From Vampirovibrionaceae bacterium NZW_1234 (GTDB lineage Bacteria; Cyanobacteriota; Vampirovibrionia; Vampirovibrionales; JAGQHJ01): a stretch of DNA of 61,064 nt. The position numbers were made by a program, and so were the translations under genes. Positions 2,610 through 56,748 of the stretch are shown here, in pieces (positions within the stretch are counted from its first letter, which is position 1; each line of letters begins with the position of its first letter). The notes under the pieces were generated by a model that was given only the letters and a program-made list of their open reading frames with translations, was not told the origin of the DNA and made no database searches. Where the stretch lies: the NCBI GenBank assembly GCA_041697335.1, contig JBGUGD010000017.1, positions 1 to 61,064 on the forward strand, in the 5' to 3' direction.

Positions 2610-4067
2610 CTATTTGGATTCGGGGACCACGAACGACCCACCCCAAATGGCTTTCTGATCCCACTTCTTGAAGGCCTTGGCAAAGGAATCCATATCTTTT
2701 TCGGTGACTTCACCCTTGGGCGTCACGAAGTACACCACCGTCACACGGATGGGCTCTTCCGCCCGCTGGTTCTGATAGCCGCTGCCGACGTTGTACTTGC
2801 CTTCGCTTTCACCGTGCCCAATGGCGACTTTGGCGAGCCCGGCCGAGGTGGCCATGGTCTTCCGGACCGGGGCGGCTTCCATCGCGTCGAACGCAGCGGT
2901 AGCCAGCATGGGTCCTGCCCCTAACGGCATAATGGGGCCTCCCCAAGAGGGCCAACGGGGGCTCGGCGGGGTACCCATGTTCGAGAGTTGCAAGTTACGG
3001 GCATCCTCTTTCAACGGGACTTGGATGAGGTAGTAGCGCTGGACATCCACATCCATCCCCTGGGACTTGAGTTCTTTTTCCATAGCCACCAAGTCCGGGC
3101 GATCTTCGGCACGGCTGGCGGTAAAGGGTGCTTTTTTTCCATTGATGTTGGCATACAGCAGCTGATGGCCGCCCTTGCCCACGACGGCATTGAAGCTGCC
3201 CTCAATCACATCGGTAATCACCATGGTATTGGAGCCATAGGGAAAGACGCTGAAGTTGAAGGCCACCCGGGGCGGTTTGCCTTCTTTCGAGGCCCCTTTC
3301 ATGTCCTTGGACGGGACCGGCACCACCGCAAACTGGTTCGAGACAATCACGTTCTTATCGTGCTGCTCCGAGGCCAAACCCAATTCCTTGAGCCGCTCGG
3401 CCAACGTAACCTCTTTGGTCTTTCCCCGGACCTTGGTGTGGATTTTGATGTTTTCCGAGGGCACCACCAGGACTTTGTCCCTGAAATTGCTATCCCGGCG
3501 AACCGATAAAGCCAGTTCGGCGGACTGAGGGTCGGCTTCGTTCCGGCGCACCCAGATGCCGACATCGCTGATGCGCTTGCCCACCGAGCTGCCTTGATCC
3601 CGGTCGATGTCTTCCCAGGAAATCTTCACCGGCGAGAACTTTTGCTTGGCGGTCAGGGCCAGGAATTGCCGATTCTGGTTCAGGCCCACGGTTTTTGTAA
3701 AATACTCCTCCCACGCCAGGACGGGGCGGCTGCCGGGGGTGCCGCCATTGGCAATGGTTTTCAGGGCGCTTACAATGCGATCTTTTCCGGTGGTATCCAC
3801 CGTAAGGTCCAGTTTCAGGTCCTGCGCAATCTGAATGGCCGTAAAATCGACCTGGCTGCTGTGGTTGGGGTGGGTTTTGATGACCTCGACGGCATGCGTG
3901 ACCCGAGGTTTGATGGTTTTGACTTGCTGGGGACTCAGCCTGAAATTCTGTTGCTCAAAAGCGGATTTAATCTGCGAGTTCAGCTCGTTTTTGCGACCGC
4001 CAAATGCGGGCTGGGTCATATAGCTTTTGCGAGGGCAAAGTGTTGCCGGTGTTGACTGGAGGTACAT
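2610..4067 (-). CDS. conserved hypothetical protein (485 aa) with N-terminal leader ending PAFG
   Basis: Long ORF with GC3-rich codons; AAAGGAG upstream of ATG 4067 (the track start at 4226 looks over-extended). Confidence 0.85.
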   Translation of the reverse strand: MYLQSTPATLCPRKSYMTQPAFGGRKNELNSQIKSAFEQQNFRLSPQQVKTIKPRVTHAVEVIKTHPNHSSQVDFTAIQIAQDLKLDLTVDTTGKDRIVSALKTIANGGTPGSRPVLAWEEYFTKTVGLNQNRQFLALTAKQKFSPVKISWEDIDRDQGSSVGKRISDVGIWVRRNEADPQSAELALSVRRDSNFRDKVLVVPSENIKIHTKVRGKTKEVTLAERLKELGLASEQHDKNVIVSNQFAVVPVPSKDMKGASKEGKPPRVAFNFSVFPYGSNTMVITDVIEGSFNAVVGKGGHQLLYANINGKKAPFTASRAEDRPDLVAMEKELKSQGMDVDVQRYYLIQVPLKEDARNLQLSNMGTPPSPRWPSWGGPIMPLGAGPMLATAAFDAMEAAPVRKTMATSAGLAKVAIGHGESEGKYNVGSGYQNQRAEEPIRVTVVYFVTPKGEVTEKDMDSFAKAFKKWDQKAIWGGSFVVPESK

Positions 4068-4316
4068 GCACTCATCTCCTTTGAAATACCATCGGGTGAC
4101 GTTAAGGGCCGATGGCATCCTAAATGGACCGAAGCGCGGGGTCAATGAGAAAAATTGTTTATTCAATAAAACGTAATAAAATTTAACGTTCTTTGTATTT
4201 TGCTGGTCGGGTTTCTCATACTGCATCGGATCTCATGGTCAGGTTGCCAATAGAATGCACCCTTGAAATCGGGGATAATACGGCGCACTGGGAAGCACGT
4301 TAGGGAGGAATGGTTT

Positions 4317-4694
4317 ATGGATGAGCGTGAGGCAGAACGCCAGTTTAGCCCGGGACAGTACGAAGGGCCTGCTGATGAGCTTGAAAAAGGCATTAACCCT
4401 CAAGATAGCCCTGGAAGCACCCAGCCGGACACGTTGGCCGGAACACCAGGCAGGATGGCCGGTGGACAATTCGGTCGTGAGCCGGGCTACCCAAGTCGGG
4501 TTCCGCCCTATGGCAATGTCGGTGTCGACGTTACCCCGGAAGGTACCGATGGTGGTGGGCCGACAGGGACCACCACAGGCAGCCGAACCGGCAGCACCGC
4601 CCATGGGCAAATCGGCGGGATGACCCAATACAATCGGGAGCTGGAACCGGGCCAACTGCCGCGGGATGAAGACAGTGACCGGGGCGAAGAATAG
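4317..4694 (+). CDS. Gly/Thr/Glu-rich disordered (hydrophilin-like) protein
   Basis: GGGAGG RBS before ATG 4317; low-complexity hydrophilic sequence. Confidence 0.65.
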   Translation: MDEREAERQFSPGQYEGPADELEKGINPQDSPGSTQPDTLAGTPGRMAGGQFGREPGYPSRVPPYGNVGVDVTPEGTDGGGPTGTTTGSRTGSTAHGQIGGMTQYNRELEPGQLPRDEDSDRGEE

Positions 4695-4720
4695 AGGGCT
4701 ATTGCCAATCTCAACACCAC

Positions 4721-5094: not shown

Positions 5095-6294
5095 CTAGTC
5101 ATCGCTGCCGACCCCGGGACGGCGGACTTTATAGGTGAGTATGGGGCGAAACGATGCAATGACCCGAATGAGCCCATGCTGTTTCAAATCATCGATAACA
5201 CGCTCGATATTTTTATAGGCCTCTGGGGCTTCTTCATACAGCATATCTTTGTCTTCGCAGATCACCCGCCCGCCCAGCGCGGTTCGGGTCAGTTGCTCCG
5301 GAGAGAAGAGTTTGCTCAGTTTGTCTCGTAAGCCGGTTCGGGCCGCTTTTCGGCCAGCCCCATGGGCCAGGGACTTCAGGTTGACTTCGCCATCGCCCAC
5401 AGGCTCAACCAGGTAGGATAGCGTCCCTCTCGATCCCGGGATCATCAGCACCCCCCGATCTGCCGGGGCGGCGCCTTTGCGATGGAGCCACACGTTTCGC
5501 CCTGCAATCAAAGCGGGCTCCAGCAGGTTATGGCAGTTGTTCATCACCAGCTTGGCTTTGGCTTTCAGGGCTTCAAACAGTCGTTCTGCGATGAGGCTGC
5601 GATTGGCAAAAGCCCATTTCACGCCATTGTTATGGGCCTTTAGATAAGCTGCCGCTTCCGGCGAGTTCTCCGGGATGCCTTGTGTGCCGCGCTGACTTAA
5701 AACCCCGTCCAGCACATGTTGACCATAGCCGCGAGAACCGCTATGGATGAGGCTGAATACTCCTTTGGGATCCAGGCCGAGTTCTGCAAACCGCTGGGGA
5801 TCTTCGATTTGGTTGACCACCTGCAATTCCGCAAAATGGTTTCCGCCGCCAATAGTGCCTAAATCCTTGTCAAACGGTGTGGACTCTGCCTCGTGCCGGT
5901 TTAGCCATTCCGCAATATCCCCGTCCCATTGATCTTCCAGTCCGGAGAGCTTGCGCTCCAGCTTGTCCAGCTTCACGTCTTTTTGCTTCAGGCCGGATTG
6001 AAACAGGCTCATGCCACAGCCAATGTCGTTGCCGATAAGATGGGGGTAAATCTGATCGGCTGTTGCAAAGACCGCCCCATTGGGAATCCCTCGTGAGGGA
6101 TGCAGATCGGGCATCCCGGCAGCGTGGACCATCCCGGGCAATGTGGCGACCTGCTTCAGCTGGGTCACGGCCATCGGATCGACCCAGTTTCGATTCGAGG
6201 CAAACACCTTGATCGAACAAGGGGCCGTCTGGGTGTCACTTGAAAATCGAGGCGAAGATTGTGGGCGGATGGATGACAGGAACATCGGTTTCAC
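5095..6294 (-). CDS. rtcB: RtcB-family RNA ligase, short RtcB2 (release-factor-H-coupled) type
   Basis: Motifs MPDLHP, GNDIGCG, LGTIGGGNHFAE, HSGSRG, HRKGA, HGAGR, EEAPEAYK; start may be ATG 6285. Confidence 0.93.
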   Translation of the reverse strand: MKPMFLSSIRPQSSPRFSSDTQTAPCSIKVFASNRNWVDPMAVTQLKQVATLPGMVHAAGMPDLHPSRGIPNGAVFATADQIYPHLIGNDIGCGMSLFQSGLKQKDVKLDKLERKLSGLEDQWDGDIAEWLNRHEAESTPFDKDLGTIGGGNHFAELQVVNQIEDPQRFAELGLDPKGVFSLIHSGSRGYGQHVLDGVLSQRGTQGIPENSPEAAAYLKAHNNGVKWAFANRSLIAERLFEALKAKAKLVMNNCHNLLEPALIAGRNVWLHRKGAAPADRGVLMIPGSRGTLSYLVEPVGDGEVNLKSLAHGAGRKAARTGLRDKLSKLFSPEQLTRTALGGRVICEDKDMLYEEAPEAYKNIERVIDDLKQHGLIRVIASFRPILTYKVRRPGVGSDD

Positions 6295-6385
6295 AACTCC
6301 AAGGCGGTGTGTTCTGTGCCTTTAAAACACTCCTCAATCCTCAAAATTGCGTCGAAAAGATAGCAATATTATAACGTACTGAAAA

Positions 6386-13614: not shown

Positions 13615-13682
13615 TCTCGTTTCTTTGTTGCCTCGTTTTGTCTAAATTGACATTACGATAGCGTAAAAAACGTTTGCCTGCG

Positions 13683-14216
13683 ATGCGAATTGCTCCTACC
13701 CGCTCTTGTGTGATTTTGCCCTCAAACCTAAACCGGCAGTTACAGACCGGTTGCCTTGCCAGCCCTTCGTTCGGCAGTAGTGCTGAAACGGGGAAGGTAC
13801 TGTTGCGCAATGGGGCTAAAGCCAATCTGATGATTGTGCAGAAAACACATCGGGCTTTGCATCAATTGCTGACCAGTGGTAGAGAGACGGATTTGGTGGC
13901 GTTGGCGGATCTGATGGAGTGGGCTCGCGGAGCAGTCGAATTACCGGGGCACGAATCCATTCCGATATTGCCGTCAGAGCTTATCGATCCGAGGAGCTTT
14001 CCCCTCCTCGAAAAAAAAGAATTGATTCCAGCGGATCACTTGGTTTCAATGGACGTCTTGAATACGGTCTTATCCGCAACAGCCGGTTGCTACCCTAATG
14101 TTGCCGTCTTAAGTCCCTACCCTTCAAAGTCTTCCTCGGGAAAGGACCCTGCAAGCTCAGAACATCCGGTTGCTCGCGTTTTGAAGGCACTATTACAACG
14201 GCGGTGGCCATTTTAA
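13683..14216 (+). CDS. hypothetical protein with leader ending PSFG
   Basis: Open frame; N-terminal leader like other lineage-specific ORFs in this window. Confidence 0.6.
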   Translation: MRIAPTRSCVILPSNLNRQLQTGCLASPSFGSSAETGKVLLRNGAKANLMIVQKTHRALHQLLTSGRETDLVALADLMEWARGAVELPGHESIPILPSELIDPRSFPLLEKKELIPADHLVSMDVLNTVLSATAGCYPNVAVLSPYPSKSSSGKDPASSEHPVARVLKALLQRRWPF

Positions 14217-14223
14217 TAGGGGT

Positions 14224-14733
14224 TTAACGAACGCGGATGATCTTGTCTTTTCGTTGGCCTCGTACCAAGGCTTTCAAAAATTTTTCCGCTTCTGCCGCAT
14301 AGTCTGCTGCAGGGATTGCTGAGGACTGAATCTGATACAGGCCCGCCCGAATATGGGGGGTAACATGACCATTGCGAGGGTTTAGCTCCAAGCGCAAGGT
14401 TTTGATTGCAAAGGGGCCATGGGTTTCGACACTGAGTGGTTCATTAAATAACTGTGTTTCTGCTTGACGCAGTACGGGGTGGTTGAAATCTTCAATATGA
14501 ATAACCAGGTTGCCTTCATCCGTTATTCCGACGGATCCCATCTGGCGCCCAGCGCCATTTCGAATATAGGTTAAAGCAACCTCGGGCTTAAAGCGAGCAA
14601 TGACACTGCGAATAATGTCCGGATCAACTTGGGTATTATCAATTCCAAAGCGGGGCTGAGCTGCGGAAGAGTTCCGTTTTAAGGGCTTGGTGCCAGGGGT
14701 GTAGTTTGTAAAATACGGTTTGATTAAAGTCAT
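14224..14733 (-). CDS. hypothetical protein with leader ending PRFG
   Basis: AGGAAG RBS; 169-aa ORF. Confidence 0.7.
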   Translation of the reverse strand: MTLIKPYFTNYTPGTKPLKRNSSAAQPRFGIDNTQVDPDIIRSVIARFKPEVALTYIRNGAGRQMGSVGITDEGNLVIHIEDFNHPVLRQAETQLFNEPLSVETHGPFAIKTLRLELNPRNGHVTPHIRAGLYQIQSSAIPAADYAAEAEKFLKALVRGQRKDKIIRVR

Positions 14734-15044
14734 CGCACTTCCTAACTAACTATCTTGCTTGTTGCACGTTTTATATGGGTGCTGCTGTAGTAGGAATAAA
14801 ACCCCTGAAGCAAAAAGTTGACATGAACGTGTAAAAAAATCTGATTTGGAAGGTTTTTATTGATGTTTCTTTACATAGTAGCATCAAAACCCTTTGTTCT
14901 AACTTAATATCGGTATTCTTGGAAGTGTGGGTTGTGAGTTAAACGTTATGAACAAGATAAACCGGCTTTTGACGACCAGTTTTATTTGTTGGAAGGTACA
15001 GGTCTCCTGTAATTCCTCGTAATCCGATCTCTCGTAAAGTGGTG

Positions 15045-17852: not shown

Positions 17853-17861
17853 GATAACCTT

Positions 17862-18980
17862 TTAAGAAACAGCCTTTCTATCTTTCATGGCTAGAGAGGC
17901 TGTTTTTGTTGGTGTTTTCGTTTCAAAGGGCTTAAGCACGTTTTGTCGAACAAACAGAAGCGCCCCATGGCAGAATTTCTGTAGCAGCGGTAGATCACAT
18001 CCGCCTCCTCCTTGGGTCGAAGCCCCGATTTCCGCAAAGGCCTCGGCATAGGCATGGTTTTCTTCGGGGCCTTGAAGCTGGTCAACCCGAAGAGGCACGA
18101 TAGAGCCAATGGGGTTGCCAATGGTCATGACTTCATCAGGATCCGGTAAGAGCTTATTGAGGGCTGCTTGTTGCAGATCTCCCTTAAACAGTGAACGAAA
18201 CAGCAGTGATTTTGAGAAAGCCGCTTTATTGGGCATCAGCGTTGGGCCGAGGACATCATCAATGTAATGCCAGGTTTCGTGTCGAATGATTTTTTCCAGA
18301 TTCTGAACGCTGAGATCAAAGCCATTGGATTGCCATTCGCGAAAGATGGATTCCGGTAAAACGACCTGCTGAAAAGAGTCTGAGAAAAGTGGCGCATCCA
18401 TTTGCTCCATAATCCCGGCCGCTTCGACTTTATAGAGTAGCGCTTTCATTTCATTGCGTTGAAGACTCGTCGGGTCTACTTGGGCTTTTTGGATTATGGC
18501 TTGGATACCTGGGTCTCCTGGAAAGCACCGGATAATAGGGGCAATAAAGACCTGTTGAAAACTCTCAGGCTCATGCTTTGCCAGATGATAGGCTTCTGCG
18601 ATATCTTGCTCCATTATTTTCCGATTGTAATACTGGGGAATGTGCGGGAAAAAATCCTCAGGCTGGTTGACCAGCAGGATTTTAAAGCCGCTATCCAGTA
18701 ACGCGTGTTTGAGGCCGGTTGGCTTAATTGATTTAAGAACTTTTGACGTGGCTTCCCTGACGAGGGAGCGAAATTCAGTGCTGATACCTTCCCCACTACC
18801 GGTCACTTCTTCCAATGGCAGTGTTTTTGCGGCTTTGCTGTCACTGGAAAATCGGACGGTGTCAGTGGGCAATGAGGCGCTGATATCTTGAAAGCAACCT
18901 ACGCGTTGCGATACCGGCAGCCTATGCAATCGATCTTGATGCCATGGTGAGTGTCTATGAAGGAGGTTCAGTGCATGCAT
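17862..18980 (-). CDS. zinc metalloprotease, ATLF/Pro-Pro-endopeptidase-like, with leader ending DTVRFS
   Basis: HETWH zincin motif, downstream S..F...F..D and EAFAE third-ligand motif. Confidence 0.7.
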   Translation of the reverse strand: MHALNLLHRHSPWHQDRLHRLPVSQRVGCFQDISASLPTDTVRFSSDSKAAKTLPLEEVTGSGEGISTEFRSLVREATSKVLKSIKPTGLKHALLDSGFKILLVNQPEDFFPHIPQYYNRKIMEQDIAEAYHLAKHEPESFQQVFIAPIIRCFPGDPGIQAIIQKAQVDPTSLQRNEMKALLYKVEAAGIMEQMDAPLFSDSFQQVVLPESIFREWQSNGFDLSVQNLEKIIRHETWHYIDDVLGPTLMPNKAAFSKSLLFRSLFKGDLQQAALNKLLPDPDEVMTIGNPIGSIVPLRVDQLQGPEENHAYAEAFAEIGASTQGGGGCDLPLLQKFCHGALLFVRQNVLKPFETKTPTKTASLAMKDRKAVS

Positions 18981-19081
18981 GGTTTCAGAGTGATCTTTCC
19001 CAATATCGCCAATACCTACAAGAAACCCTCTCAACCTTTGTTATTGCTAATAAACCCGTCATGGATAACGGATCTGTGAAC

Positions 19082-32762: not shown

Positions 32763-33653
32763 ATGAGTTTAACTGTTCCCGGTTTCTCATCGTCAGTGAC
32801 TCATCGTGTTGCCTATGGGCATTTGCACTCCAATGCATCTCTTCGCTTTAAAGCAGATAGTCCGTCGGAACAAGACCAACCCGCTCGTCCGCCTATGCGT
32901 CCTCTGGCTCAGCGTCTTCTAGGTAAGCTGAGTGACTTGGGAGCCAGTGCTTCCAATACGTTTCAGGATGCCCTCGGTCTGGGTCAGTTGGTTGGGGATG
33001 CCATTGTTGCCCAAGTTACCGGGAAAATGCCGGATCGTCGTTCGGATGCAGAAGTTGAATCCGATAGAGCACGTGAAGCGGCTAAAAATGATGCCATGGC
33101 CAAAACCAATCTCTTTGTCGAACAAACCCTTCTGCCCAGTCTCCCTGCGCCACTGCAAAAACTTCCTGCCTTAGGGGCTTCGGATCGACTGCGGCTTTCT
33201 CGCTTGCCTCAGAATATGCAGGAGAACCCTGATCAATATGGCTTGCCTGGTAAACAAGGGACGATTACCCCTTATAGATTGTTGAGAGGTCTCCGTCACA
33301 TCTCACAATTGTTTAACAACAAATCGAAACCCGAGTTGGTAGCAGACAACCAGAAGCGCGGGTTTCCTTATTTGGATCTGACCAAGCCCGTTGAAATCAC
33401 ACCAGAAGGTGATATTGTCAGTGAGGGTAAGGTAACCATTCCTTCAGCCGATATTACATATGCCTTGCGCAGGGGGTTGAATGTCGGAGAAGAAACGGCG
33501 GCCAATATGCGCAACTGGGTTGTTCAGGCCGCAGCGGTAAAACCGGATTTACTGGAAGGCTTTCTGACAACGCCGCTTGCCAACGGTAATGTTGGGCTGG
33601 TAAAACGTCCTCAACCGAATTCGGCTGATACAGAAACAGCTGCCGATTCATAA
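32763..33653 (+). CDS. hypothetical protein with leader ending LRFK
   Basis: CAGGAG RBS; 296-aa ORF. Confidence 0.8.
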   Translation: MSLTVPGFSSSVTHRVAYGHLHSNASLRFKADSPSEQDQPARPPMRPLAQRLLGKLSDLGASASNTFQDALGLGQLVGDAIVAQVTGKMPDRRSDAEVESDRAREAAKNDAMAKTNLFVEQTLLPSLPAPLQKLPALGASDRLRLSRLPQNMQENPDQYGLPGKQGTITPYRLLRGLRHISQLFNNKSKPELVADNQKRGFPYLDLTKPVEITPEGDIVSEGKVTIPSADITYALRRGLNVGEETAANMRNWVVQAAAVKPDLLEGFLTTPLANGNVGLVKRPQPNSADTETAADS

Positions 33654-40766: not shown

Positions 40767-41588
40767 ATGATGCCCACTGCTGTTTCCGGACCCAAGTTTG
40801 GGGCTTGGTTGAAGATTGAAACCAGTAAAGAAATGACGCTGTATCCGGCAGGCTCGGCGCTGAATCAGGTTCAACCTGCCAACAGCCGAAATCGCTATCA
40901 CGAAATCGGGGATTTGATGGCCAAATCCGATGAGTTGAAAACGCTCCTGGCTCAAATTGACGACCACAAGGCCAGGGACATGATGATTACCATGAATGTG
41001 GCCTCTGGGACCCCCACAGCCGTCATTCGGACCCATTACGACAACGACAATCAGGCGTTGGCGGCGGAACCCGGCGAGGGGCTGTTTGAGTTTGCCAAGC
41101 GCACGTTACAGACTGCGGGTGAGATGGCTAAAAAGTTATTGACCCCGCAAGAGCGCCATGCCCTTCGCTCCACGTTGCTGAATCAAACCCTCACCGATTT
41201 TGCCACGGCGCTGGACACCGGGTCGTTGGAAAATTTGGGTAAGCTGGATCTGTGGAAGGATTGTCCCGATTTGGCCTTTCGGGTCAAGGCCGGTGGACGG
41301 GAATACGCCGTACAGAACGAAGCCAATGAGCCGGAAACGTATGAGCTGCGGTTTACCCACGATAATCGGCGTTACCAGGTGACCTTGAAGCCTCAGCAAA
41401 TTCACGTCCAGGAAACCCAGCAGTCCTCTCATGAACACCGAAGCTATAATCCCCTGGATGCTGGAAAACAAGACACCAGCCTGGAAACCGTCGCCAAGCT
41501 CATCACCCTTCGCGATCTTGGCGAAAAAGTCCGCAAAGGCCTCAAGCAACATCCCCAGTTGTTCCCAAAACTGGATCGTCGGGGGTAG
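40767..41588 (+). CDS. hypothetical protein with short leader ending PKFG
   Basis: AAAGGA RBS before ATG 40767; followed by hairpin CTCAAGC/GCTTGAG. Confidence 0.8.
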   Translation: MMPTAVSGPKFGAWLKIETSKEMTLYPAGSALNQVQPANSRNRYHEIGDLMAKSDELKTLLAQIDDHKARDMMITMNVASGTPTAVIRTHYDNDNQALAAEPGEGLFEFAKRTLQTAGEMAKKLLTPQERHALRSTLLNQTLTDFATALDTGSLENLGKLDLWKDCPDLAFRVKAGGREYAVQNEANEPETYELRFTHDNRRYQVTLKPQQIHVQETQQSSHEHRSYNPLDAGKQDTSLETVAKLITLRDLGEKVRKGLKQHPQLFPKLDRRG

Positions 41589-45630: not shown

Positions 45631-45780
45631 AGAGCTTACCGATAACCCGGTTAAGTGATTTAAGATAATCATTGCAGAACCTAACAGCCAGAAGCACTCA
45701 TGAACATCTGCATATCGTTCATATCGGATAACAAGCTTTCTAAACATTTCCAGCCAGCTGAAAACCTGGATTGAAGACCA
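45631..45780 (-). pseudogene. IS5-family transposase C-terminal remnant
   Basis: FSWLEMFRKLVIRYERYADVHECF..L matches the IS5 DDE C-terminal F.WL..FR.L..RYER motif. Confidence 0.75.
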
Positions 45781-45848
45781 TTTCCAACATCGCTATCACA
45801 GTACATCAGAAGCGAGAATCTCCAAAAATGATTTAATTAAACGTTAGG

Positions 45849-45904
45849 CTATTAAAGGATAATATGCTATCCTTTAATAGTGAGGGTGTCTTATTAAAGG
45901 ATAA
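45849..45904. promoter_or_regulatory. putative operator upstream of the Fic gene
   Basis: Perfect 13-bp inverted repeat CTATTAAAGGATA-N6-TATCCTTTAATAG plus a third half-site TATTAAAGGATAA at 45892-45904. Confidence 0.7.
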
Positions 45905-45906
45905 GT

Positions 45907-48563: not shown

Positions 48564-48951
48564 CTCTCTCTGGTCCCTCTTATCCTTTTTCCGGCACATC
48601 CTTATTCGGGCATATCGGATTTGCTGCTTCTGGTCCAGAAACGCGCCTCAAGATGGACTTGTGCTGTTATGTTGAAATATGTAACACGTCAAAAACAGAT
48701 CCTTTGCCAAGATGTGAGGCGGGAAAGGGCTTGTTCGGCGAGCCCAATGATGCTGGGGGAGGTTTTTTAGGAGATTATGCCGGGAATGGCGATACACATC
48801 TGTTGCAAGTTGTAACAGTTGGCACCAGGGATGGTGTTCGGGAATGAGGGTGTTTGTGCTACGGTATTGCAATCAAATTTCAGTGGAGATTTTGATTCAT
48901 TATTTAATTAAGACAGGCAATCATGTCGATTTTCGAGTCGGGAGGATAACT

Positions 48952-50604
48952 ATGCGAATTTCTCATACACCCTTGGCGCATCGTGTGTTGATGCAACCGA
49001 TGATGCCCGCATTGCGACACAATGGTTCGGCGGCAGCGCATCGGACGTCGGCGCTGGACGAGGTCCGGTTTTCCGGGGGGAAATCGACGGTTCCTGTAGA
49101 GAAACTGTTTATTAACGGTGAATTCGTTCCGTCCCGCTCCGGCAAGACCTTCAAGGTCTACAACCCGTTTAATCAAGCGGTGATTGCCAAGGCTGCGGTG
49201 GCCTCGGAAGAGGATGTGAATGATGCTGTCCAGGCGGCGCGTACGGCCTTTGATTCCGGCGTGTGGTCCGACAAACCGGCCCAGGCTCGGGCCGATGTGC
49301 TTCGCAAAATCGCCAAGGTGATTCGGGACAATGCCGAAGAATTGGCTCAGCTGGAAACCAAGAACAACGGGAAAGCCATTACCGAAGCCCGGTATGATGT
49401 GGCCGACTCGGCGCGTCACTTTGAATACTATGCCGAATTGGCGGCGAAACAGACAGGGCAAGTGATGCCGCTGGGCGATGGATCCGATGCGACGATCCAA
49501 AAAGAACCCCTGGGCGTGGTCGGTCAGATTATTCCCTGGAATTACCCGTTGATGATGGGCGCCTGGAAGATGGCCCCGGCCCTTGCCGCCGGGTGTACCG
49601 TCGTGATTAAGGCGGCGGAAGAAACACCGTTGTCGCTGTTGAAACTGGCGTCGCTGCTGAAAGAGAATTTCTCCAAGGACGAGTTGCCCCCCGGGGTCAT
49701 TAATATCCTCACCGGGCCTGGCGTGCCGACGGGGCAAGCCTTGGCGAACCACCCGGATATCGATCGTTTCTCCTTTACCGGCAGCACTCAAGTCGGTGGC
49801 CTCATTGCCAAAGCTGCCGCGGCCAACGTCAATGGCCCCAAGCCGGTCAATCTGGAAATGGGAGGCAAGTCGCCGCTTATCGTCTTTAAGGACGCCGATC
49901 TGGATCAGGCGGCCGATGCCGCCGTGTTTGGCTTTAACGTCAATGGCGGTCAGGTGTGCTCGGCTACCAGTCGGATTGTGGTGGATGCATCCATTCACGA
50001 TGCCTTCGTCGAAAAGCTGGTCGAGCGGATGAAGCATATTCGCATGGGTGAAGGTACCGATCCCAACGTGAATCTGGGGCCGTTGGTGTCCAAGGCACAG
50101 AAAAAACGTGTCCTGGGCTTCATTCAGAAGGGCCTTCAGGAAGGGGGCAAGCTGGTCGTTGGCGGTAAGGCGCCTTCGGATCCCAAATTGGCCCAGGGCA
50201 ACTTTGTGGAGCCCACGCTGTTTACCCATGTCGATCCCAAGTCCACCATTGCCCAGGAAGAGATCTTCGGGCCGGTGGCCGTGGTTCTGCCCTTTAAATC
50301 CGAAGATGAAGCCTTGGCTCTGGCCAATGGCACCAAGTACGGTCTGGCGGCTTCGATTTGGACCAACGACTTGAACCGGGCCAAGCGGGTCAGCAAGAAA
50401 GTGCAGGCCGGGGTGGTTTGGGTGAACAACAACCAGCCCGCCAACGCCGAATTCCCGTGGCAAGGGTGGAAGCAGTCCGGCAACGGCTTTGGCCGCGGTG
50501 ACAGTCTGGATTCCTACCAGAAAACCAAGACCGTGACGTTTACGCCGAATCCCTTTGGGGCGTGGTTTCAGCCCTTACCAACTGCCGGTGGCGATCAGAA
50601 ATAA
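48952..50604 (+). CDS. aldehyde dehydrogenase (betaine/amino-aldehyde dehydrogenase-like) with about 42-aa leader ending DEVRFS
   Basis: IIPWNYP, FTGST, LEMGGK, GQVC, EEIFGPV; GGAGG RBS before ATG 48952. Confidence 0.95.
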   Translation: MRISHTPLAHRVLMQPMMPALRHNGSAAAHRTSALDEVRFSGGKSTVPVEKLFINGEFVPSRSGKTFKVYNPFNQAVIAKAAVASEEDVNDAVQAARTAFDSGVWSDKPAQARADVLRKIAKVIRDNAEELAQLETKNNGKAITEARYDVADSARHFEYYAELAAKQTGQVMPLGDGSDATIQKEPLGVVGQIIPWNYPLMMGAWKMAPALAAGCTVVIKAAEETPLSLLKLASLLKENFSKDELPPGVINILTGPGVPTGQALANHPDIDRFSFTGSTQVGGLIAKAAAANVNGPKPVNLEMGGKSPLIVFKDADLDQAADAAVFGFNVNGGQVCSATSRIVVDASIHDAFVEKLVERMKHIRMGEGTDPNVNLGPLVSKAQKKRVLGFIQKGLQEGGKLVVGGKAPSDPKLAQGNFVEPTLFTHVDPKSTIAQEEIFGPVAVVLPFKSEDEALALANGTKYGLAASIWTNDLNRAKRVSKKVQAGVVWVNNNQPANAEFPWQGWKQSGNGFGRGDSLDSYQKTKTVTFTPNPFGAWFQPLPTAGGDQK

Positions 50605-50635
50605 GTTTTTTGAAGTGTAGACGAGGAGAATCCCA

Positions 50636-52171
50636 ATGGTCACAGTGCGTTCCGATGCGGCGATTATGATGCATCGCCAAGCTCATTTCCAATCCTCTAT
50701 GCCGGTTGCGGCGATGAAAAAGCCTGCCCTGACGAAACTGTCCGCGGCCAGTCAGGTTCGCTTCGCCTCGGGCCTGCCGCCCAAGACCGATTATGACGTG
50801 GCCATTGTCGGCGGTGGCTTGTCCGCCATGACGGCGGCCTATCAGCTTCGCAAGCGGGGCTATAATGTGGCTGTCATCGAAGCCGGAAAAGAGCTGGGAG
50901 GGAATGCCCGTTCCGCTGTGACCGAGGATGGGATGCCCTATACCATCGGCGCCAGTGTGTTGGCCGTTGGAGATGATCGCCAGCTGGAAATGCTGAAGGA
51001 AGTCGGGATTGATTTCGCCAATCCCAAGTACAAGATTCACCGGGACATCTCTTATGTGGACAACAAGTGGCTGTCCGTCGATCTGGACAAGCCCAACGCC
51101 ACTCGTCGGGAGCGCAAGTTTGCCGAGGCTGTGGATAAGGTCGTTCAGACCATGTTCAACATCCTGGGGGGCCCCAGTGGGACGCCGTCCTTCCCCCTGC
51201 GCAAAGCGGCGGATGATATCTTTAAGTGGAGCCGTCGCAATTTCAGCTTCCATGACTTTCTGGTGAAAACCGGCTGCCCGCCCGAAGTGCGCAAGTTCTT
51301 TGAAGTGAACTTCCGTTCCGATGTCTCCGAAGATCCGCGTAAGGTCGATGCTCTGGCCGGGATTATCGATCAGGGTGCCGATCAGGGTGTTCGGATTCTG
51401 CTGCCCAACGGCAACCACACCATCATTTTGCGGATGAAAGAAGCCATGGACAAAATGACGGGTCAGGGCAACGTGGACTTTCTGACGGATTCGCCGGTGA
51501 AGAAAGTGGAAGAAGGACCCCAGTTTGCCACTGTGCGCTATGTCCGAGACGGTGAAGAAAAAACCGTGACGGCGAAAAACGTGCTCCTTGCCCTGCCCTC
51601 GCATCGCATGCCCGAGGTCATGGACCTGCCTGCCAAAACCGCCAAGTTCCTCAAGAGCATCAAGCGGGGCTCCTACGCCATGCTGAACCTGTTCCTGAAC
51701 GAAGCGCCCTTGCAGTCCAATACCTATTACAAGTTCCCGCATGCCACCTGGGTTGCCGACATCGTCCAGAACAACCGGGATCACAACCCGGATCTGCCGC
51801 CCGGCTCCAAAGAAAAATCCATTTTGACCTGCTACATCCCCATTCCTCGGGATCTGCGCAAAGCCACGCCGCCGGAGCATCTCCTGACCGAGAAAGTCAT
51901 TGATGAAATCATGGTCGCCATGCCTTTCTTGAAAGGCAAAATCAAAGGCACCCGGATGACTTTCTACCCCGAATCCATGTCGGCACCTTCGCCGGGGCAA
52001 ATGAAAAAGCTGCGTGATTTTGATCGCCAGCTGACCCCGCACGTCCGGACCATTCACTCTGACCTGAGCGGCGTGTTTGCAGCCCGTGGCGCCATGGATG
52101 AAGCGCTGACCGCCGTGGAAGTGTTGGATGAAAAACGCAAGACCGAATCCTCGGGATCGGTTGTGGCATAA
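50636..52171 (+). CDS. FAD-dependent oxidoreductase (flavin amine oxidase family) with leader ending QVRFA
   Basis: DVAIVGGGLS..TAAY.L...G..V.V.EA...LGG; GAGGAG RBS. Confidence 0.88.
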   Translation: MVTVRSDAAIMMHRQAHFQSSMPVAAMKKPALTKLSAASQVRFASGLPPKTDYDVAIVGGGLSAMTAAYQLRKRGYNVAVIEAGKELGGNARSAVTEDGMPYTIGASVLAVGDDRQLEMLKEVGIDFANPKYKIHRDISYVDNKWLSVDLDKPNATRRERKFAEAVDKVVQTMFNILGGPSGTPSFPLRKAADDIFKWSRRNFSFHDFLVKTGCPPEVRKFFEVNFRSDVSEDPRKVDALAGIIDQGADQGVRILLPNGNHTIILRMKEAMDKMTGQGNVDFLTDSPVKKVEEGPQFATVRYVRDGEEKTVTAKNVLLALPSHRMPEVMDLPAKTAKFLKSIKRGSYAMLNLFLNEAPLQSNTYYKFPHATWVADIVQNNRDHNPDLPPGSKEKSILTCYIPIPRDLRKATPPEHLLTEKVIDEIMVAMPFLKGKIKGTRMTFYPESMSAPSPGQMKKLRDFDRQLTPHVRTIHSDLSGVFAARGAMDEALTAVEVLDEKRKTESSGSVVA

Positions 52172-52237
52172 TGGCATGATGGGGGAAACCCTGGTCATTC
52201 CAAGACAGTGTAGCGAATGCAGAAAGAGGTATTGTTG

Positions 52238-53596
52238 ATGTCACCGGAGTTGCTGACACAGGATGCGGCCTTGTTGCCGGAAATAAAAACCCCGTTGCCG
52301 GGGCCCAAGACTAAGGCGTTGATTGAAAAAGACGCTGAGTTTGTGACCCCGTCCTACCCGCGTCCGTATCCATTATCTGTTGCCGAGGCCAAGGGGTCGG
52401 TGGTGACGGACTTGGATGGCAATCGCTTTCTGGATTTGAATGCCGGTATTGCCGTCTGCTCGACCGGGCATGCCCATCCCGAGGTTGTCGAGGTCATGCA
52501 CCAGCAGGCCCAGAAGTTTATTCACATGGCCGGGATGGAATTCTATTACGACGTCATGGCGGATCTGGCCGAGCGTCTGGCCAAATCTGCCCCGGGTAAA
52601 ACCCCAAAGAAGGTGTTCTTCTGCAACTCCGGCACCGAAGCCGTGGAAGGGGCCATGAAGCTCGCCCGCTACTATACCGGTCGCCAGAAGTTTATCTCGT
52701 TTTTCCGCGGGTTTCACGGCAGAACCTTTGGCTCGATGTCGTTGACGGCCAGCAAGTCTCAGCAGCAAGCTGGTTTTTCACCGCTGGTGCCGGGTGTGTA
52801 TCACGCGCATTATCCCTATGCGTATCGCTGTGCCTTTAATACCACATCGCCCGAAGCCTGTGCCCAGGCGGCGCTGGATTACATCGAGGACACCCTCTTT
52901 AAAACCGTCGTGCCTCCCAACGAAGTGGCCGCCTTTATTCTGGAGCCCATTCAAGGGGAAGGCGGCTATGTGGTTCCGCCGGAAGGCTTTCTGAAACAGT
53001 TGCAGGATCTGGCCGAGAAATACGAAATCCTGATCATTGCCGATGAGGTCCAGAGCGGTATTGGTCGCACCGGCAAGTTGTGGGCCTCGGAGCACACCCC
53101 CGGGTTTGAGCCCGATATTATCACCAGTGCCAAGGGGCTGGCCTCCGGCATGCCCTTGGGCGCCATTATTGCCAAGAACTACATTATGAGCTGGGAGCCC
53201 GGCGCCCATGCCACCACCTTCGGCGGCAATCCCGTAAACTGCGCGGCAGCGCTAAAGACCCTGGATTTGGTCGAAAACGGCTTGATGCAAAACGCCGAAC
53301 GCCAAGGCAAGCGTTTGATGGACAAGCTCCATGGCTTGATGGCTGAGTGCAACGTGATTGGCGAAGTTCGCGGCAAAGGTCTGATGATTGGCGTGGAGTT
53401 TGTCCTGGATAAACAGACCAAGGAAAAGGCCGTTGCCCTTCGCAATAAAATTGTCCAGGACTGCTTCGAGCAAGGGCTGTTGCTTTTGGGTTGCGGCGAA
53501 AATAGCATTCGCTTCAGTCCCCCCCTGGTCATCACCGACGAGCAAATCGACTATGCCTTTGAGGTGTTTCGCAGCGTCGTCTTGAAGAACCAGTAG
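52238..53596 (+). CDS. class-III PLP aminotransferase (GABA/putrescine/acetylornithine aminotransferase family)
   Basis: NSGTEAVE, FHGRT, EPIQGEGG, DEVQSG.GRTG, AKG, TFGGNP. Confidence 0.95.
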   Translation: MSPELLTQDAALLPEIKTPLPGPKTKALIEKDAEFVTPSYPRPYPLSVAEAKGSVVTDLDGNRFLDLNAGIAVCSTGHAHPEVVEVMHQQAQKFIHMAGMEFYYDVMADLAERLAKSAPGKTPKKVFFCNSGTEAVEGAMKLARYYTGRQKFISFFRGFHGRTFGSMSLTASKSQQQAGFSPLVPGVYHAHYPYAYRCAFNTTSPEACAQAALDYIEDTLFKTVVPPNEVAAFILEPIQGEGGYVVPPEGFLKQLQDLAEKYEILIIADEVQSGIGRTGKLWASEHTPGFEPDIITSAKGLASGMPLGAIIAKNYIMSWEPGAHATTFGGNPVNCAAALKTLDLVENGLMQNAERQGKRLMDKLHGLMAECNVIGEVRGKGLMIGVEFVLDKQTKEKAVALRNKIVQDCFEQGLLLLGCGENSIRFSPPLVITDEQIDYAFEVFRSVVLKNQ

Positions 53597-53768: not shown

Positions 53769-54398
53769 ATGATGATTGGCTCACTACGTTTTGGACAGGT
53801 GTATCGGTTGGAAGCCCGTGCTGAAGATGGGCTTTTAGATACGAAAAAGCCAGCTGACCAATTGCAAAAGGATAAGTATTTTCTGGAACAACAATCGGCG
53901 CGTGATTTGGCCGATCTCTTTATCAAAAATGGGATTCCTGCCAAGGTTGTTCACATGGGCGGGATGAATGGAAATGGGACTGAAGATACGTATCTGGCCG
54001 ATGTTGTTCAGGGGTCTGAAAATGGCGGGATTTCAGCTGCCCAAGATTCGCAGTTTTTTGTATTAACAGGTTCTGACTTGGAAGAGGACAATCGGTGGCG
54101 GAGTTCCATTGCTCAAAAAGGACTCAATTTTGCCAAAGATAAACCTGCAGATCACTCGAATAGGCATGACCTTAGTACGGCCTTTTCCCTGGATGCACTT
54201 TTAGTGGAGATTCGACGTTGGCGGGCCAGTTTGTTGCCGATGCTGAAATTGAAAGCGATCCCTGTGCATCCCATGCCCGGTCAGGAAAAATTCTCCTTCC
54301 ATCAACCTGATTATAGCGAGTTGGCAAAACTTCCAAATGCCGTGGCCTATACAGGACCTGAACGCAAATATTTTCCGCAGTCCAAACTTGCCGAGTAA
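53769..54398 (+). CDS. hypothetical protein, tandem paralog A (leader LRFG)
   Basis: GAGGAG RBS; aligns by eye with 54538..55134. Confidence 0.8.
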   Translation: MMIGSLRFGQVYRLEARAEDGLLDTKKPADQLQKDKYFLEQQSARDLADLFIKNGIPAKVVHMGGMNGNGTEDTYLADVVQGSENGGISAAQDSQFFVLTGSDLEEDNRWRSSIAQKGLNFAKDKPADHSNRHDLSTAFSLDALLVEIRRWRASLLPMLKLKAIPVHPMPGQEKFSFHQPDYSELAKLPNAVAYTGPERKYFPQSKLAE

Positions 54399-54537
54399 AT
54401 TAAAAAATCACGTCTGTTTATACTCTATCTGTCTGCTGACTAAGATGCCTGCAGGTGTCTCTGAATGAGGTTTTGTTTTTGGTAAGCTGATAGGTGATGG
54501 ATTTCGCCATTGTTGGGGATGCTTGTAGGGGAGTGCT

Positions 54538-55134
54538 ATGGTTCAGGCAATTGGAACGATGAAACCGATTCGGTTTGGGCAGATTTATCGGGCAGTGCTT
54601 AGACGCGACGCCACGACCGCTCGCAGCCCATTACCGCCCTATTTGAAAGAGCCCTATGTTGTTGAGAAAAAGGCGTCCGAGCTTTTGGCCGATGCCTTTC
54701 AGAAGCAGGGCATACCTGCGAAAGCGGTTCATATGAGCGGGATGGAAGAGACCAATGAGGCTTATTTTACGGAGTTGTTCACCGGCTCCGACTGGAATCA
54801 CATGCCGGCACGATCGTCCTCGCAGTTTTTTGTCTTGACCGGGCCGGAGCTGGTGCGCGATCAAACGGCGCGCGCTGACTTAATCTTGAAAGCCCAGCTT
54901 TTGGCTGAGGATAATACCACGGATACCTTGGGCAAATGTCATGAATACAGCACTTCACTGGCGCTGAATCGCTTGATGGGTGCTATTCGGCGCTGGCGAT
55001 CCGGGTTGCTGGCCGATCTGAAAACCAGGGCGATTCCCGTGTATGTTACCCCCGATCCCAAAGACGGGTTTACGTATCATCCGGCGGACTATTCCGAACT
55101 TCAAAAGTTGGCCAATGCGACACCTTTGGTGTAA
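54538..55134 (+). CDS. hypothetical protein, tandem paralog B (leader IRFG)
   Basis: Shared blocks GIPAK.VHM.GM, SQFFVLTG, IRRWR, AIPV, DYSEL.KL.NA. Confidence 0.8.
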   Translation: MVQAIGTMKPIRFGQIYRAVLRRDATTARSPLPPYLKEPYVVEKKASELLADAFQKQGIPAKAVHMSGMEETNEAYFTELFTGSDWNHMPARSSSQFFVLTGPELVRDQTARADLILKAQLLAEDNTTDTLGKCHEYSTSLALNRLMGAIRRWRSGLLADLKTRAIPVYVTPDPKDGFTYHPADYSELQKLANATPLV

Positions 55135-55173
55135 CGGAGTGTGTGGCCATATTGATGATCACTATCGGCTGAT

Positions 55174-56748
55174 TTAGCTCGACATGACAAAGTCGTGGTC
55201 GATATCGGCGCGGGCTTTGTCCAGCCAGGGTGCAGACTGGGAGCGGGTGTCCATCTTCTTGATGAGCTGCTTGACAGCGGTTTTGACGCCAAACATGGCT
55301 TCGTCCACGGCCGTCAGGATCGATGGAATTGCACCGCCATCGCTGTTAATCAGGGTCACATTGCCAAAGGTGCGGGGCATTTCCCGAAGTTTTTTGACCT
55401 GGCCCGGTTTGGGGGAGGCCATGGAATACTTGAATTGCGAGATGTTGACGCCGTCAATCATCTCCGGCTGAATTTCGGGAAAGTGGGTCAGAATGTCTTT
55501 GACGACTTCTTTTTCAAAGGCTTTTAAATTTTTGCGGCGTCCGGTGTGGGGGATGTAAATGGACATCACCGAGGGCTTTTCCGGATCGGCCTTGTGGTTG
55601 GCTTCCGCCTCGTCGGTGTGGACGTACAGATCGGCAATCAGTTTGGACTCCGGCAACATATAGAACTGACGGGTTTTTAGCGGTGTTTTGTTCAAATACA
55701 GATTGACGATGGAATACGAGCTTCGCGGCAGGGACGTCATAAGTGACGCCACTTTGTCCGGCAGCTTCATCAATCGGGGCACCTGATTATAAGGGGCGGC
55801 CATAAGTACGGTATCTGCAGAAATAACGTGAAGCGAACCGTCTCGGCCCCGATATTTGAGATAGACCTTGTCCTTGTCCTGTTCCACCTGCTCGACGGTT
55901 TTGGACAACTGTAAAACCGGCTCTGCCGAGCCAGCGGCTCGGTTGATTTCCTCTTTCAACCGCGTAACGACATCGGCGTTGCCTCGGGGGAAGACATAGC
56001 GATCGTGAAGGAGATCGCCCAAGTCGTTCATGGCCACATAGCTTGAGGACGCGTCACTGGGGGCTGCTAAATCCGACTGCAGGTATTTGTCCGCCATCGT
56101 ATAGACCATGGGCCCATAGGGTTGCGAGAGTTCGGAAAAGGGTTTTTTATCCCATAAGCCAAAAGCATGCGGCTTGGCATTCTGGATGGGAATGACCGGT
56201 GAGCTTTTCTTGCGGGCAAAAATACGGCCGATTTTTTTCAACAAGCGAAGGAAATCACGGGCTGCACGTTGGCCTTCTTCCGTTTGGGGTTTAAACTCGG
56301 CCAGATCCTCTTTGGTCCCAAAGGCCGTAAACCGCTCCCCATTTTTGTAGACAAAGATTTCCGGCTTCAGCAGGTATTCCCGGCGCAGGTCCAATCCCAG
56401 CTCTTTCCAGAGGATCCGATGGTTCTCGTTGCCCGGGAGAAAAATAGTGGCCCCTGCTGAATGAGGAATACCTGAGGGAGATTCGCCTTGATTGCAGTTG
56501 CCGCCCAGTCGCTTCCCCGCTTCCAGTAAGACGGCCGGAATGCCTCGGCGTTTGACCAGATCGTACATGGCCACCAGACCCGCATTGCCACCGCCGACAA
56601 CAACGGCAGGATAGTGTTTTTCAACCCGTTTCTCCAACGGATGGGCTGCAAATAAGACTTGCCCTGAAAACGGCTTGCGCCGATACTGCCACTCATTCCC
56701 TTTGGGATTTGCCTTCGTTGCGAAGGCAATCTGACGTGTGATTTCCAC
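55174..56748 (-). CDS. FAD-dependent oxidoreductase, paralog of 50636..52171
   Basis: VVVGGGNAG, LEAGKRLGGN; shared SY...NL.LN..PL and SM..P.PGQ.KKLR; GTG 56748 with AAGGGG upstream. Confidence 0.88.
   Translation of the reverse strand: MEITRQIAFATKANPKGNEWQYRRKPFSGQVLFAAHPLEKRVEKHYPAVVVGGGNAGLVAMYDLVKRRGIPAVLLEAGKRLGGNCNQGESPSGIPHSAGATIFLPGNENHRILWKELGLDLRREYLLKPEIFVYKNGERFTAFGTKEDLAEFKPQTEEGQRAARDFLRLLKKIGRIFARKKSSPVIPIQNAKPHAFGLWDKKPFSELSQPYGPMVYTMADKYLQSDLAAPSDASSSYVAMNDLGDLLHDRYVFPRGNADVVTRLKEEINRAAGSAEPVLQLSKTVEQVEQDKDKVYLKYRGRDGSLHVISADTVLMAAPYNQVPRLMKLPDKVASLMTSLPRSSYSIVNLYLNKTPLKTRQFYMLPESKLIADLYVHTDEAEANHKADPEKPSVMSIYIPHTGRRKNLKAFEKEVVKDILTHFPEIQPEMIDGVNISQFKYSMASPKPGQVKKLREMPRTFGNVTLINSDGGAIPSILTAVDEAMFGVKTAVKQLIKKMDTRSQSAPWLDKARADIDHDFVMSS

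Follow-up and report, generated by a model that had tools for sequence, protein, structure and literature searches.

A genome-wide N-terminal leader in a member of the Vampirovibrionales: a candidate type III export tag and a second flagellum-derived export set

What does it mean when about a dozen unrelated proteins, encoded on one contig, begin with the same kind of N-terminal leader? The question was raised by a stretch of 61,064 nucleotides (contig JBGUGD010000017.1, assembly GCA_041697335.1; the whole stretch is called the window here) from Vampirovibrionaceae bacterium NZW_1234, in which a first-pass annotation had noticed acid-poor leaders ending in a phenylalanine motif and had taken them for a lineage-specific export signal. 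The window is contig C21 of a 3.70-Mb genome of 41 contigs (G000), which is 94.75% complete. The leader is confirmed as real and genome-wide, and the reading which we prefer, with a probability of roughly 0.6, is that it would be an N-terminal type III export tag for an effector regulon, read by a second, flagellum-derived export set (system 2) separate from the motile flagellum. Also new here are a promoter-like element, the second export set itself, which is without filament genes, and a co-occurring FliA-like sigma factor.

Genes and starts were taken from our own open reading frame script, which gave 3176 genes and some start assignments of which will be wrong. RFG was the top-enriched N-terminal trimer, with 147 occurrences in residues 4-45 of 2749 proteins (log10 p = -65), compared with 16.5 expected from composition and about 23 once the internal excess is included; PRF, VRF and LRF ranked next. 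An iterated leader score model was then used with a threshold of at least 7 for membership and at least 8 for strict counts; internal-Met starts served as decoys and shuffled N-termini as a second control. By this model 373 of 2946 proteins are members, i.e., about 12% of the proteome or one protein in eight, and 352 proteins reached at least 8, vs 17 expected from the decoys. When the model was trained on one half of the genes, 148 of 1458 held-out genes scored at least 8, vs 7 decoys and 14 shuffled N-termini. RFG was found 158 times in frame 0 and 21-62 times in each of the five other frames, and the upstream in-frame control gave 0.47 vs 1.31 per 1000. Chance or an artefact of gene calling is ruled out by the decoys, the shuffles, the held-out half and the other reading frames. 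A few percent of the 373 are false positives, e.g., an enzyme motif of a phosphomannomutase.

The model consensus is M-x-[IL]...(S/P/T/A-rich, almost no Glu)...[SPA]-[VPLI]-R-F-[GSA]-[GSA]. The first-pass annotation had described the motif as F-[G/S/A/K]; its phenylalanine holds, but since F-[GSAK] by itself shows hardly any enrichment, the information lies in the core [VPLI]-R-F-[GSA]-[GSA]. Leader length is very variable, the Phe of the motif lying at median residue 24 approximately (5-95%: 6-57), before residue 15 in 123 and before residue 20 in 157 of the 373 leaders. With 2.5% Asp + Glu and 33% Ser + Pro + Thr, vs about 11% and about 18% in the proteome, the leaders are acid-poor and Ser/Pro-rich as had been read from the window, only the enrichment of His being not notable. 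Ile, Leu or Val occurs within residues 2-4 in 82% of the longer leaders, compared with 51% of other proteins. The claims that a hydrophobic Sec/Tat core is missing and that housekeeping proteins are free of the leader were borne out: a core of about 12 residues was present in only 5 of the 240 leaders long enough to test, and 15 ribosomal proteins, EF-Tu, Tkt, GlgP and Dps all scored 2.1 or less. The twelve motifs listed for the window were all in frame at their starts, with 6285 (ATG) or 6294 (GTG) as the start of RtcB; eleven of the proteins scored 9.8-16.6, while GQVLFA at 56748 (0.8) is a degenerate member at best. Motif discovery at N-termini against decoys, shuffles and a housekeeping set has thereby extended the enrichment from the window to the genome.

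The leader is a peptide add-on in front of ordinary domains. A repeat at the DNA or RNA level is ruled out by the full use of synonymous codons in the motif and by the 330 unrelated families into which the leader proteins fall; true starts 3' of the motif are likewise ruled out, an equally good downstream start being available in only 2 of the 373 genes. Comparison with orthologues elsewhere agrees with an add-on: 117 of 119 homologues of the RtcB2 of the window begin at the domain, without a leader. The other two, the best match among them, have different leaders ending PRFSGG and PQFGAS, and the orthologue of the window's aldehyde dehydrogenase in the relative G003 has an unrelated leader, still ending DSVRFSS. 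In these three cases the motif is kept while the remainder of the leader turns over. Within the genome, 59 tagged proteins have a leaderless twin (paralogue), and leaderless paralogues align from the motif Phe or beyond in 25 of 31 cases, as would be expected from the earlier remark that the recognisable domain starts shortly after the motif. A hydrophobic N-terminal stretch was found in 10 of the 59 leaderless paralogues; a few of these ten pairs are spurious. The window protein 2610-4067 is 55% identical to C10:154719-156221, and the latter has a Sec-type signal peptide at the exact position of the leader. Among conserved proteins, i.e., those present in distant families, 1 of 174 is tagged. 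A tagged acyltransferase used as homologue query returned only 2 relatives.

The nature of the cargo was explored with a Pfam scan covering 257 of the 373 leader proteins, those in retrieved loci. No family was assigned to 160 of them (67 of 123 at 1e-4, 93 of 134 at 1e-6), compared with 17 of 60 random non-leader neighbours at 1e-6. Tagged proteases comprise Lon-like, FtsH-like and ClpB-like proteins (two each), ClpP, three trypsins, two subtilases and two calpains, with further peptidases of the M1, M16, M20, S9 and VanX-like types; lipases and acyltransferases are present, as are alpha-glucan enzymes (GlgA-like, MalQ, TreZ-like) and the metabolic enzymes citrate synthase, malate and glutamate dehydrogenases, phosphoribosyl pyrophosphate synthase and enzymes of nicotinamide adenine dinucleotide (NAD). 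HEAT and TPR proteins, two CheR, a sigma-70 protein and PrkA/YeaH/SpoVR are tagged as well; in the operon G000:C5:198089-205961 (L019:151-8020) the genes for SpoVR, YeaH/DUF444, PrkA and ClpP each have their own leader. PrfH and RtcB2, which pass the NCBIfam cut-offs and are encoded on different contigs, each have a leader and a strong promoter; in E. coli the pair makes up a 16S rRNA repair module (PMC13166195, PMC9304027, PMC9223846). The genome's only two sigma-54-type activators are both tagged, and RpoN was not found in this genome, nor above the cut-off in 22 relatives. Consisting mostly of orphans, from many unrelated families, with a single conserved protein and with numerous leaderless twins, the cargo is effector-like.

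An intracellular role has to be weighed at this point. The leader could be the tag of a developmental or stress regulon, i.e., a degron, a pro-segment removed by a protease or a motif for docking to a scaffold or compartment, on life-stage proteins (attack phase, dormancy) which serve in the cytoplasm of the bacterium itself. A cytoplasmic and stress-linked role is the usual one for PrkA/YeaH/SpoVR, PrfH/RtcB2, CheR, citrate synthase, NAD enzymes and the enzymes of trehalose and glycogen; the leader length is very variable, and the shared promoter described below fits any regulon. What makes this explanation unlikely, if still worth keeping in mind, is that the leader takes the place of a Sec-type signal peptide in a paralogue pair, that the sigma-54 activators have no RpoN partner, that 59 tagged proteins duplicate a leaderless one, and that 330 unrelated, mostly orphan families are more typical of effectors.

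If the cargo is exported, it may be asked where it would act. Cargo dependent on adenosine triphosphate (ATP) or NAD needs a cytoplasm, and PrfH/RtcB2 together with the sigma-54 activators imply one of bacterial type; PrfH and RtcB2, and sigma-54 activators without RpoN, suggest a eukaryotic cytosol no more strongly than a destination in bacteria or organelles. The suggestion of delivery into a eukaryotic prey is not favoured over the bacterial or organellar one: ankyrin, LRR, F-box and U-box families were not found among the 257 leader proteins scanned, and a sigma-70 protein is tagged besides PrfH, RtcB2 and the activators. Nor is the genome that of Vampirovibrio chlorellavorus, as had been implied; it belongs to another member of the Vampirovibrionales, since relatives of one of its sigma factors, a conserved one, have up to 84% identity in the Vampirovibrionales, 70% in V. 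chlorellavorus and 57-66% in the Gastranaerophilales. A variant which could be combined with the preferred reading is that the motif mimics an organellar transit peptide and acts after delivery into a plastid or mitochondrion of the prey. R-F↓S/A-S resembles a mitochondrial processing site, the composition is acid-poor and Ser/Arg-rich, 70S-ribosome, sigma-factor, starch and tricarboxylic acid cycle cargo would have targets in organelles, and Chlorella is the prey of V. chlorellavorus (PMC4451040). For this role the leader is in many cases too short, with Phe before residue 15, and Arg is replaced by Ser, Asn or Thr in gut lineages without known algal prey, so that we regard such mimicry as very improbable.

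A separate line of evidence lies 5' of the genes. GCA-n10-TTGA was found before 44 of 326 leader genes and 15 of 1402 others. A promoter matrix trained on half of the leader genes matched 50 of the 186 leader genes held out, vs 53 of 2159 genes without a leader; on the reverse strand it matched 8 of 186. The full matrix placed the element before 127 of the 373 leader genes, with 124 of the 127 sites ending at least 26 nucleotides 5' of the start. It lies on the sense strand, its two boxes keep a constant distance (GCA to TT, 23 nucleotides), and it occurs in two classes: TAGCAA-n9-TTGAGgg-nTT (class A; 75 of 110 sites before leader genes) and GCAATTTt...GTTTTtaT (class B; 52 of 125), both being in-sample counts. 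This strand-specific, promoter-like element is an independent signal shared by many leader genes. Many genes with a strong promoter are without the R-F-G motif and have Pro/Tyr/Gly/Met-rich low-complexity starts (C10:152710, C25:67248, C9:116048; window 47187-48563), perhaps a second tag class.

For comparison, relatives were grouped as families with the code names f1-f11, of which f7 would be the gut Gastranaerophilales family and f5 the Obscuribacterales. The element precedes leader-like genes in f2, f3 and f7, and several f7 genes have it a few nucleotides before their ATG; one of four exact matches in the record of V. chlorellavorus precedes a gene with a leader score of 10.8. When a matrix trained on f7 was used on 59 further gut-type loci, with one gene per family, leaders were present in about 12 of 53 promoter-positive and 21 of 371 promoter-negative genes; in these Gastranaerophilales loci the median p was 3e-4 and the reverse strand gave 4 of 47. 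The exact class A pattern had 12, 2, 16 and 14 matches in four f1 genomes (controls 0-1), 21 vs 3 in ten f3 genomes and 13 vs 4 in sixteen larger f5 genomes; there were 0-1 in f6-f9 and f11, the pattern missing an AT-rich variant. A divergent FliA-like sigma factor was present in all 26 relatives with a second FlhA (FlhA2) and in none of 12 without it. Two copies are encoded in f1, f2, f3 and f7, and likewise in one f4 genome of the two. FlhB2 lies inside the locus of this sigma factor in 70 of 80 cases, and one of the G000 sigma paralogues adjoins flhB2.

Which machine could read the leader? The genome encodes a complete flagellar set (system 1) and, spread over four contigs, a divergent second one. 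C32 has two flgF/G-like genes, flgB, flgC, a transglycosylase gene, fliE, fliF, an unknown gene, fliH, flhA and fliI; C8 has a fliN/sctQ-like gene, fliO, fliP, fliQ and fliR; C29 has flhB with the FliA-like sigma gene; and C30 has fliJ, an unassigned gene in the fliK position and a flgE-like gene for a short protein. The type III export apparatus (FlhA/B, FliP/Q/R, FliH/I/J, FliF) is thus encoded as two full sets. With tblastn no second FlgK, FlgD, FlgH, FlgI or FliG was matched in this genome, and no second flagellin was found; by these matches system 2 does not qualify as a motile flagellum, which has a filament, hook-filament junction, cap, L/P rings and stator of its own. FlhA2 scored 678 bits with FlhA and 586 with SctV, below both cut-offs, and FlhB2 passes flhB; altogether the core is nearer to the flagellar FlhA/FlhB/FliF/FliI than to SctV/U/J/N, and the rods are FlgB/C/F/G-like. 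FlhA2 has DPTYGA at the position where FlhA1 has EPAFGL, a site which, by its motif and a provisional mapping to Salmonella residues, we take to be the chaperone-binding cleft. The cleft of FlhA was described in PMC5932034. The system 2 transglycosylase has a leader score of 9.6, and the flagellar cap FliD one of 8.5.

Several details of this set may be recorded here. The autocleavage site of FlhB2 (G000:C29:178730-179812; L145:231-1310) reads NPIH rather than NPTH; NPIH occurs in 17 of 20 Vampirovibrionales copies and NPTH in 42 of 50 gut-type copies. Between fliF2 and fliH2, in the position of fliG, lies the gene for a protein of 385 amino acids (G000:C32:14371-15528; L006:9375-10529) without Pfam or NCBIfam family; beyond clusters of unnamed Melainabacteria and weak leads to FliG, below 0.8, the ESM Atlas offered nothing on it. 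A stand-alone protein of 106 amino acids with a flagellar rod N-terminal motif (G000:C20:54089-54409; L038:8283-8600) has a leader score of 8.1.

The search for secretion systems in the genome yielded the second type III set and no type IV, type VI or contractile markers: VirB4 is absent from this 94.75% complete genome and present in 3 of 35 relatives, and neither VipB nor a contractile sheath was found in it, so that these systems were rejected as exporter. The leader might also be read by another exporter, such as the Tad pilus, a type IV pilus/type II system or an unrecognised one, the co-occurrence with system 2 being then a matter of shared ancestry. Both secretins of the genome are in such loci, one Tad-like and one type IV pilus/type II-like (C2:141071-150242, C19:7737-13625), Tad pili are involved in prey killing by myxobacteria, and few independent gains or losses stand behind the co-occurrence. 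Type II secretion, on the other hand, needs a Sec/Tat step and the leaders have no hydrophobic core, the markers just named were not found, and an unstructured N-terminal signal is a hallmark of type III systems. Another exporter would appear improbable.

The distribution across relatives speaks to the same point. At least two FlhA matches were present in 39 of 41 order members; FlhA2 identity was 64-78% in f2, f3, f4 and f7 and 37-43% in f6, f8, f9 and f11, and no FlhA was found in f5 (0 of 16) or f10 (0 of 1). In f7, system 2 is kept at 62-65% identity, with no FlgK in f7, f8 and f9 together (0 of 26, of which f7 0 of 10) and no flagellin or MotA in four f7 genomes. A protein of about 495 amino acids, matching FlhA only in its cytoplasmic half, behind an unrelated N-terminus (G065:C3:317649-318671; L074:12223-13701), occurs in all ten f7 and both f4 genomes and was not found in this genome; a soluble sorting factor or a remnant of FlhA1 is possible.

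Leaders in relatives were counted with the model of this genome at a score of at least 7, against each group's own decoys and in small samples. There were 2 of 26 in f1 (0 expected), 5 of 155 in f2 (0.8), 9 of 145 in f3 (0.5), 5 of 434 in f7 (1.3) and 7 of 422 families in gut-type sigma loci (0); in the FlhA-less f5 there were 4 of 304 (1.3 expected; p 0.1, not significant), the top matches looking like signal peptides or doubtful open reading frames. Around the sigma gene in the Vampirovibrionales there was no enrichment (6 of 123 vs 4.0). The motif of the gut loci has shifted to [VIN]-[SNT]-F-[KGT] (16 vs 5.3 in 387 families). A loose regular expression gave no family of relatives above N-terminal shuffles, and a de novo trimer search in 140-330 genes per family gave no motif; signal in relatives was obtained only by scoring with the model, by pooling patterns and through the link with the promoter. 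From these small samples, with few independent events, the leader partly follows the clade with close FlhA2 and two sigma copies, including its non-motile members. Export by the motile flagellum as a side job would be consistent with the complete system 1 and with scores above background for FliD (8.5), a FlgJ-like (5.6) and a FlgM-like protein (4.7), but leaders and promoter persist in f7 without FlgK, flagellin, MotA and full-length FlhA1, which makes this explanation the most improbable one considered.

The preferred reading, a type III tag read by system 2, could work as follows. The divergent FliA-like sigma factor, with its two paralogues, would transcribe the cargo genes from promoters of the form GCAA...TTGAGG...TTTT or GCAATTTT...GTTTTTAT. 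The unstructured, acid-free leader, with a hydrophobic residue at 2-4 and R-F-G/S, would dock on the system 2 apparatus without a cognate chaperone; the cargo would be unfolded and threaded through the gate and a rod-like conduit, to arrive in a prey or host cell attached to the bacterium. The cytoplasm of that cell might then be digested and reprogrammed by cargo dependent on ATP and NAD, which includes proteases (Lon-, FtsH- and Clp-like) and lipases, enzymes of alpha-glucans and of nucleotides, dehydrogenases, factors for transcription and ribosome repair, and many orphans. What the first-pass annotation had proposed, an export signal marking an effector repertoire, is well, if indirectly, supported as far as it concerns a lineage-specific tag on an effector-like set (N-terminal enrichment, rarity on conserved proteins, grafting, the exchange with a Sec signal, the shared promoter and a candidate exporter), the export being predicted.

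A number of observations weigh against this reading. Only about one third of the leader genes (127 of 373) have the element, class B precedes more genes below the leader threshold than above it, the matrix scan did not find the element 5' of the system 2 operons, and in a fresh f7 sample of 86 genes there was no link between promoter and leader (p 0.4-0.5). The leader signal of f7 is weak under the model of this genome (p 0.04). Despite their divergent FlhA2, f8 (0 of 167), f9 (0 of 172) and f6 (0 of 34) had no leaders in small samples, and the negative result for f5 stems from 304 genes of three genomes and probably a single loss. Scores below 5 are the rule for the rod, hook and flagellin subunits of either system, and the tag is therefore not a general type III signal. 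The Phe motif has a hydrophobic residue at F+4 in only 72 of 373 leaders and often lies before residue 15, which is unlike the gate-recognition arrangement in Salmonella. No outer-membrane ring, needle, tip or translocon of system 2 was identified, needle and translocon families not being included in the search. Much of the cargo could also function in the cell's own cytoplasm, and in the window (48952-53596) a class III aminotransferase without leader is co-oriented with two tagged enzymes, the aldehyde dehydrogenase and an amine oxidase.

How does the leader compare with known signals? The flagellar gate-recognition consensus is F-x-x-x-hydrophobic, about 30 residues behind an N-terminal hydrophobic signal. 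In Salmonella FlgD the early-substrate export signal is bipartite, with residues 2-5 and a gate-recognition motif at 36-40 (PMC8983047). The leader is similar in being N-terminal, unchaperoned and hydrophobic near the start, with a Phe-centred motif further on; it differs in its core, since the flagellar consensus is present in just those 72 leaders, in a spacing which is often much shorter, and in its occurrence on hundreds of non-structural proteins while being mostly absent from rod and hook subunits. Injectisome signals are not known to share a consensus. The leader resembles them in being disordered and Ser/Pro/Thr-rich, without a cleavable Sec core, and in having metabolic enzymes as cargo; in Chlamydia trachomatis GlgA, GlgX and MalQ carry type III signals (PMC4829429). 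Unlike an injectisome, system 2 scores closer to flagellar proteins than to SctV/U/J/N and keeps FlgB/C/F/G-like rods. By the features tested, the leader falls outside the gate-recognition-motif, Sec/Tat and injectisome families, and would appear to work like a type III substrate signal.

The needle-less type III secretion system of myxobacteria is a reused type III system. Lysobacter enzymogenes OH11 exports toxic enzymes via a filament-less flagellar type III system (PMC7688988), and basal bodies of Buchnera are a filament-less flagellar reuse (PMC8109811). Gate, ATPase and rod genes without filament, and the link to predation or host association, are shared with system 2, which differs in being an ancient duplicate beside a complete flagellum, conserved across several orders, and in having its own sigma family and a sequence-defined tag on about 12% of the proteome. 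Di Rienzi et al. (2013; PMC3787301) listed 13 flagellar genes common to four Melainabacteria genomes including MEL.A1 (flgG x2, flgC, fliF, fliH, flhA x2, fliI, flgE, fliP/Q/R, flhB), and these match the make-up of system 2; the absence of filament, cap, junction and L/P rings in MEL.A1, read there as genome reduction, would here reflect a separate conserved paralogous system. In the type IV secretion model of Soo et al. (2015; PMC4451040), hydrolytic enzymes enter the prey of V. chlorellavorus via an attachment pad and a spike; unlike VirB4, two FlhA copies are present in 39 of 41 order members. In the literature on this group, supplements and most subscription journals aside, neither the leader nor the promoter nor a second export system was found to be described.

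The window offers examples on both strands; numbers after the coordinates are leader or promoter scores. On the reverse strand, QPAFGG (3999..4067; 11.3), with F at residue 22, begins the protein 2610-4067 of 485 amino acids, and SPRFSS (6241..6285; 16.2) begins RtcB2 (5095-6285), with a class A element (GCAA-n9-TTGAGG-n-TTTT) 5' of it (6319..6356; 26.9). This is one of four window genes with a promoter-like element. The others are the 14733 gene, for 169 amino acids without Pfam family (leader QPRFGI, 14644..14733, 12.3; element 14791..14828, 12.9), the 18980 gene, for 372 amino acids with a zinc-protease-like HETWH motif (leader DTVRFSS, 18846..18980, 9.8; class A element 19016..19053, 22.0), and 47187-48563 (element 48633..48670, 13.4), the product of which has a Ser/Pro/Thr-rich N-terminus and fails the leader model (-0.3). 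The doubtful leader GQVLFAA of an amine-oxidase paralogue (56647..56748; 0.8) also lies on this strand. On the forward strand, three proteins without Pfam family begin with SPSFGS (13683..13775; 12.1; 177 amino acids), SLRFKA (32763..32852; 14.8; 296 amino acids) and the short GPKFGA (40767..40802; 9.8; 273 amino acids). DEVRFSG (48952..49074; 16.6) belongs to the aldehyde dehydrogenase and SQVRFAS (50636..50767; 13.2) to a flavin amine-oxidase-family protein; the short leaders SLRFGQ (53772..53795, start 53769 or 53772; 10.6) and PIRFGQ (54538..54579; 10.1) are those of two paralogues with 40% identity.

Zinc-protease-like features were seen in the tagged proteins of window 17862-18980, L057:3702-4679 and C29:180811-181581; the second matches Pfam ATLF (E 7e-8), and the HETWH protein of the window has no Pfam match. 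The protein 16872-17852 has EF-hand-like repeats, a Pro-Ala/Thr/Val repeat tail and a terminal amphipathic segment. A mobile or defence island is suggested by the region 42076-47061, where the guanine-plus-cytosine content is lower and several unannotated open reading frames lie together with the gene for a Fic-motif protein (HPFLDGNGRLGR). No RNA runs were found for window 12000-20000.

A wider proposal, which we put forward as tentative, is that the Vampirovibrionia may have evolved a delivery machine from a duplicated flagellar basal body, independently of injectisomes, with its own sigma factors and with a consensus tag carried by as many as about 370 proteins, which would rank among the largest tagged repertoires known. 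This machine would serve the group, the uncultured gut Gastranaerophilales included, as its apparatus for predation or symbiosis (in V. chlorellavorus, the "spike"), and would bring whole working modules, e.g., ATP-dependent proteases, transcription activators and ribosome repair, into a bacterial or organellar cytoplasm. If the preferred reading is true, it would give a concrete answer to the question how Vampirovibrio-type predators deliver enzymes into their prey, and would challenge the plasmid type IV model, the marker of which is rare in the order. There would be a type III signal with a real consensus, unlike injectisome signals, and the passage from flagellum to secretion system could be seen in a living organism; tag and promoter would permit the prediction of effector repertoires from genomes. 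The uncultured gut Gastranaerophilales, which kept the machine after the loss of motility, would be cell-attached parasites or predators, and this would help to explain their resistance to culture.

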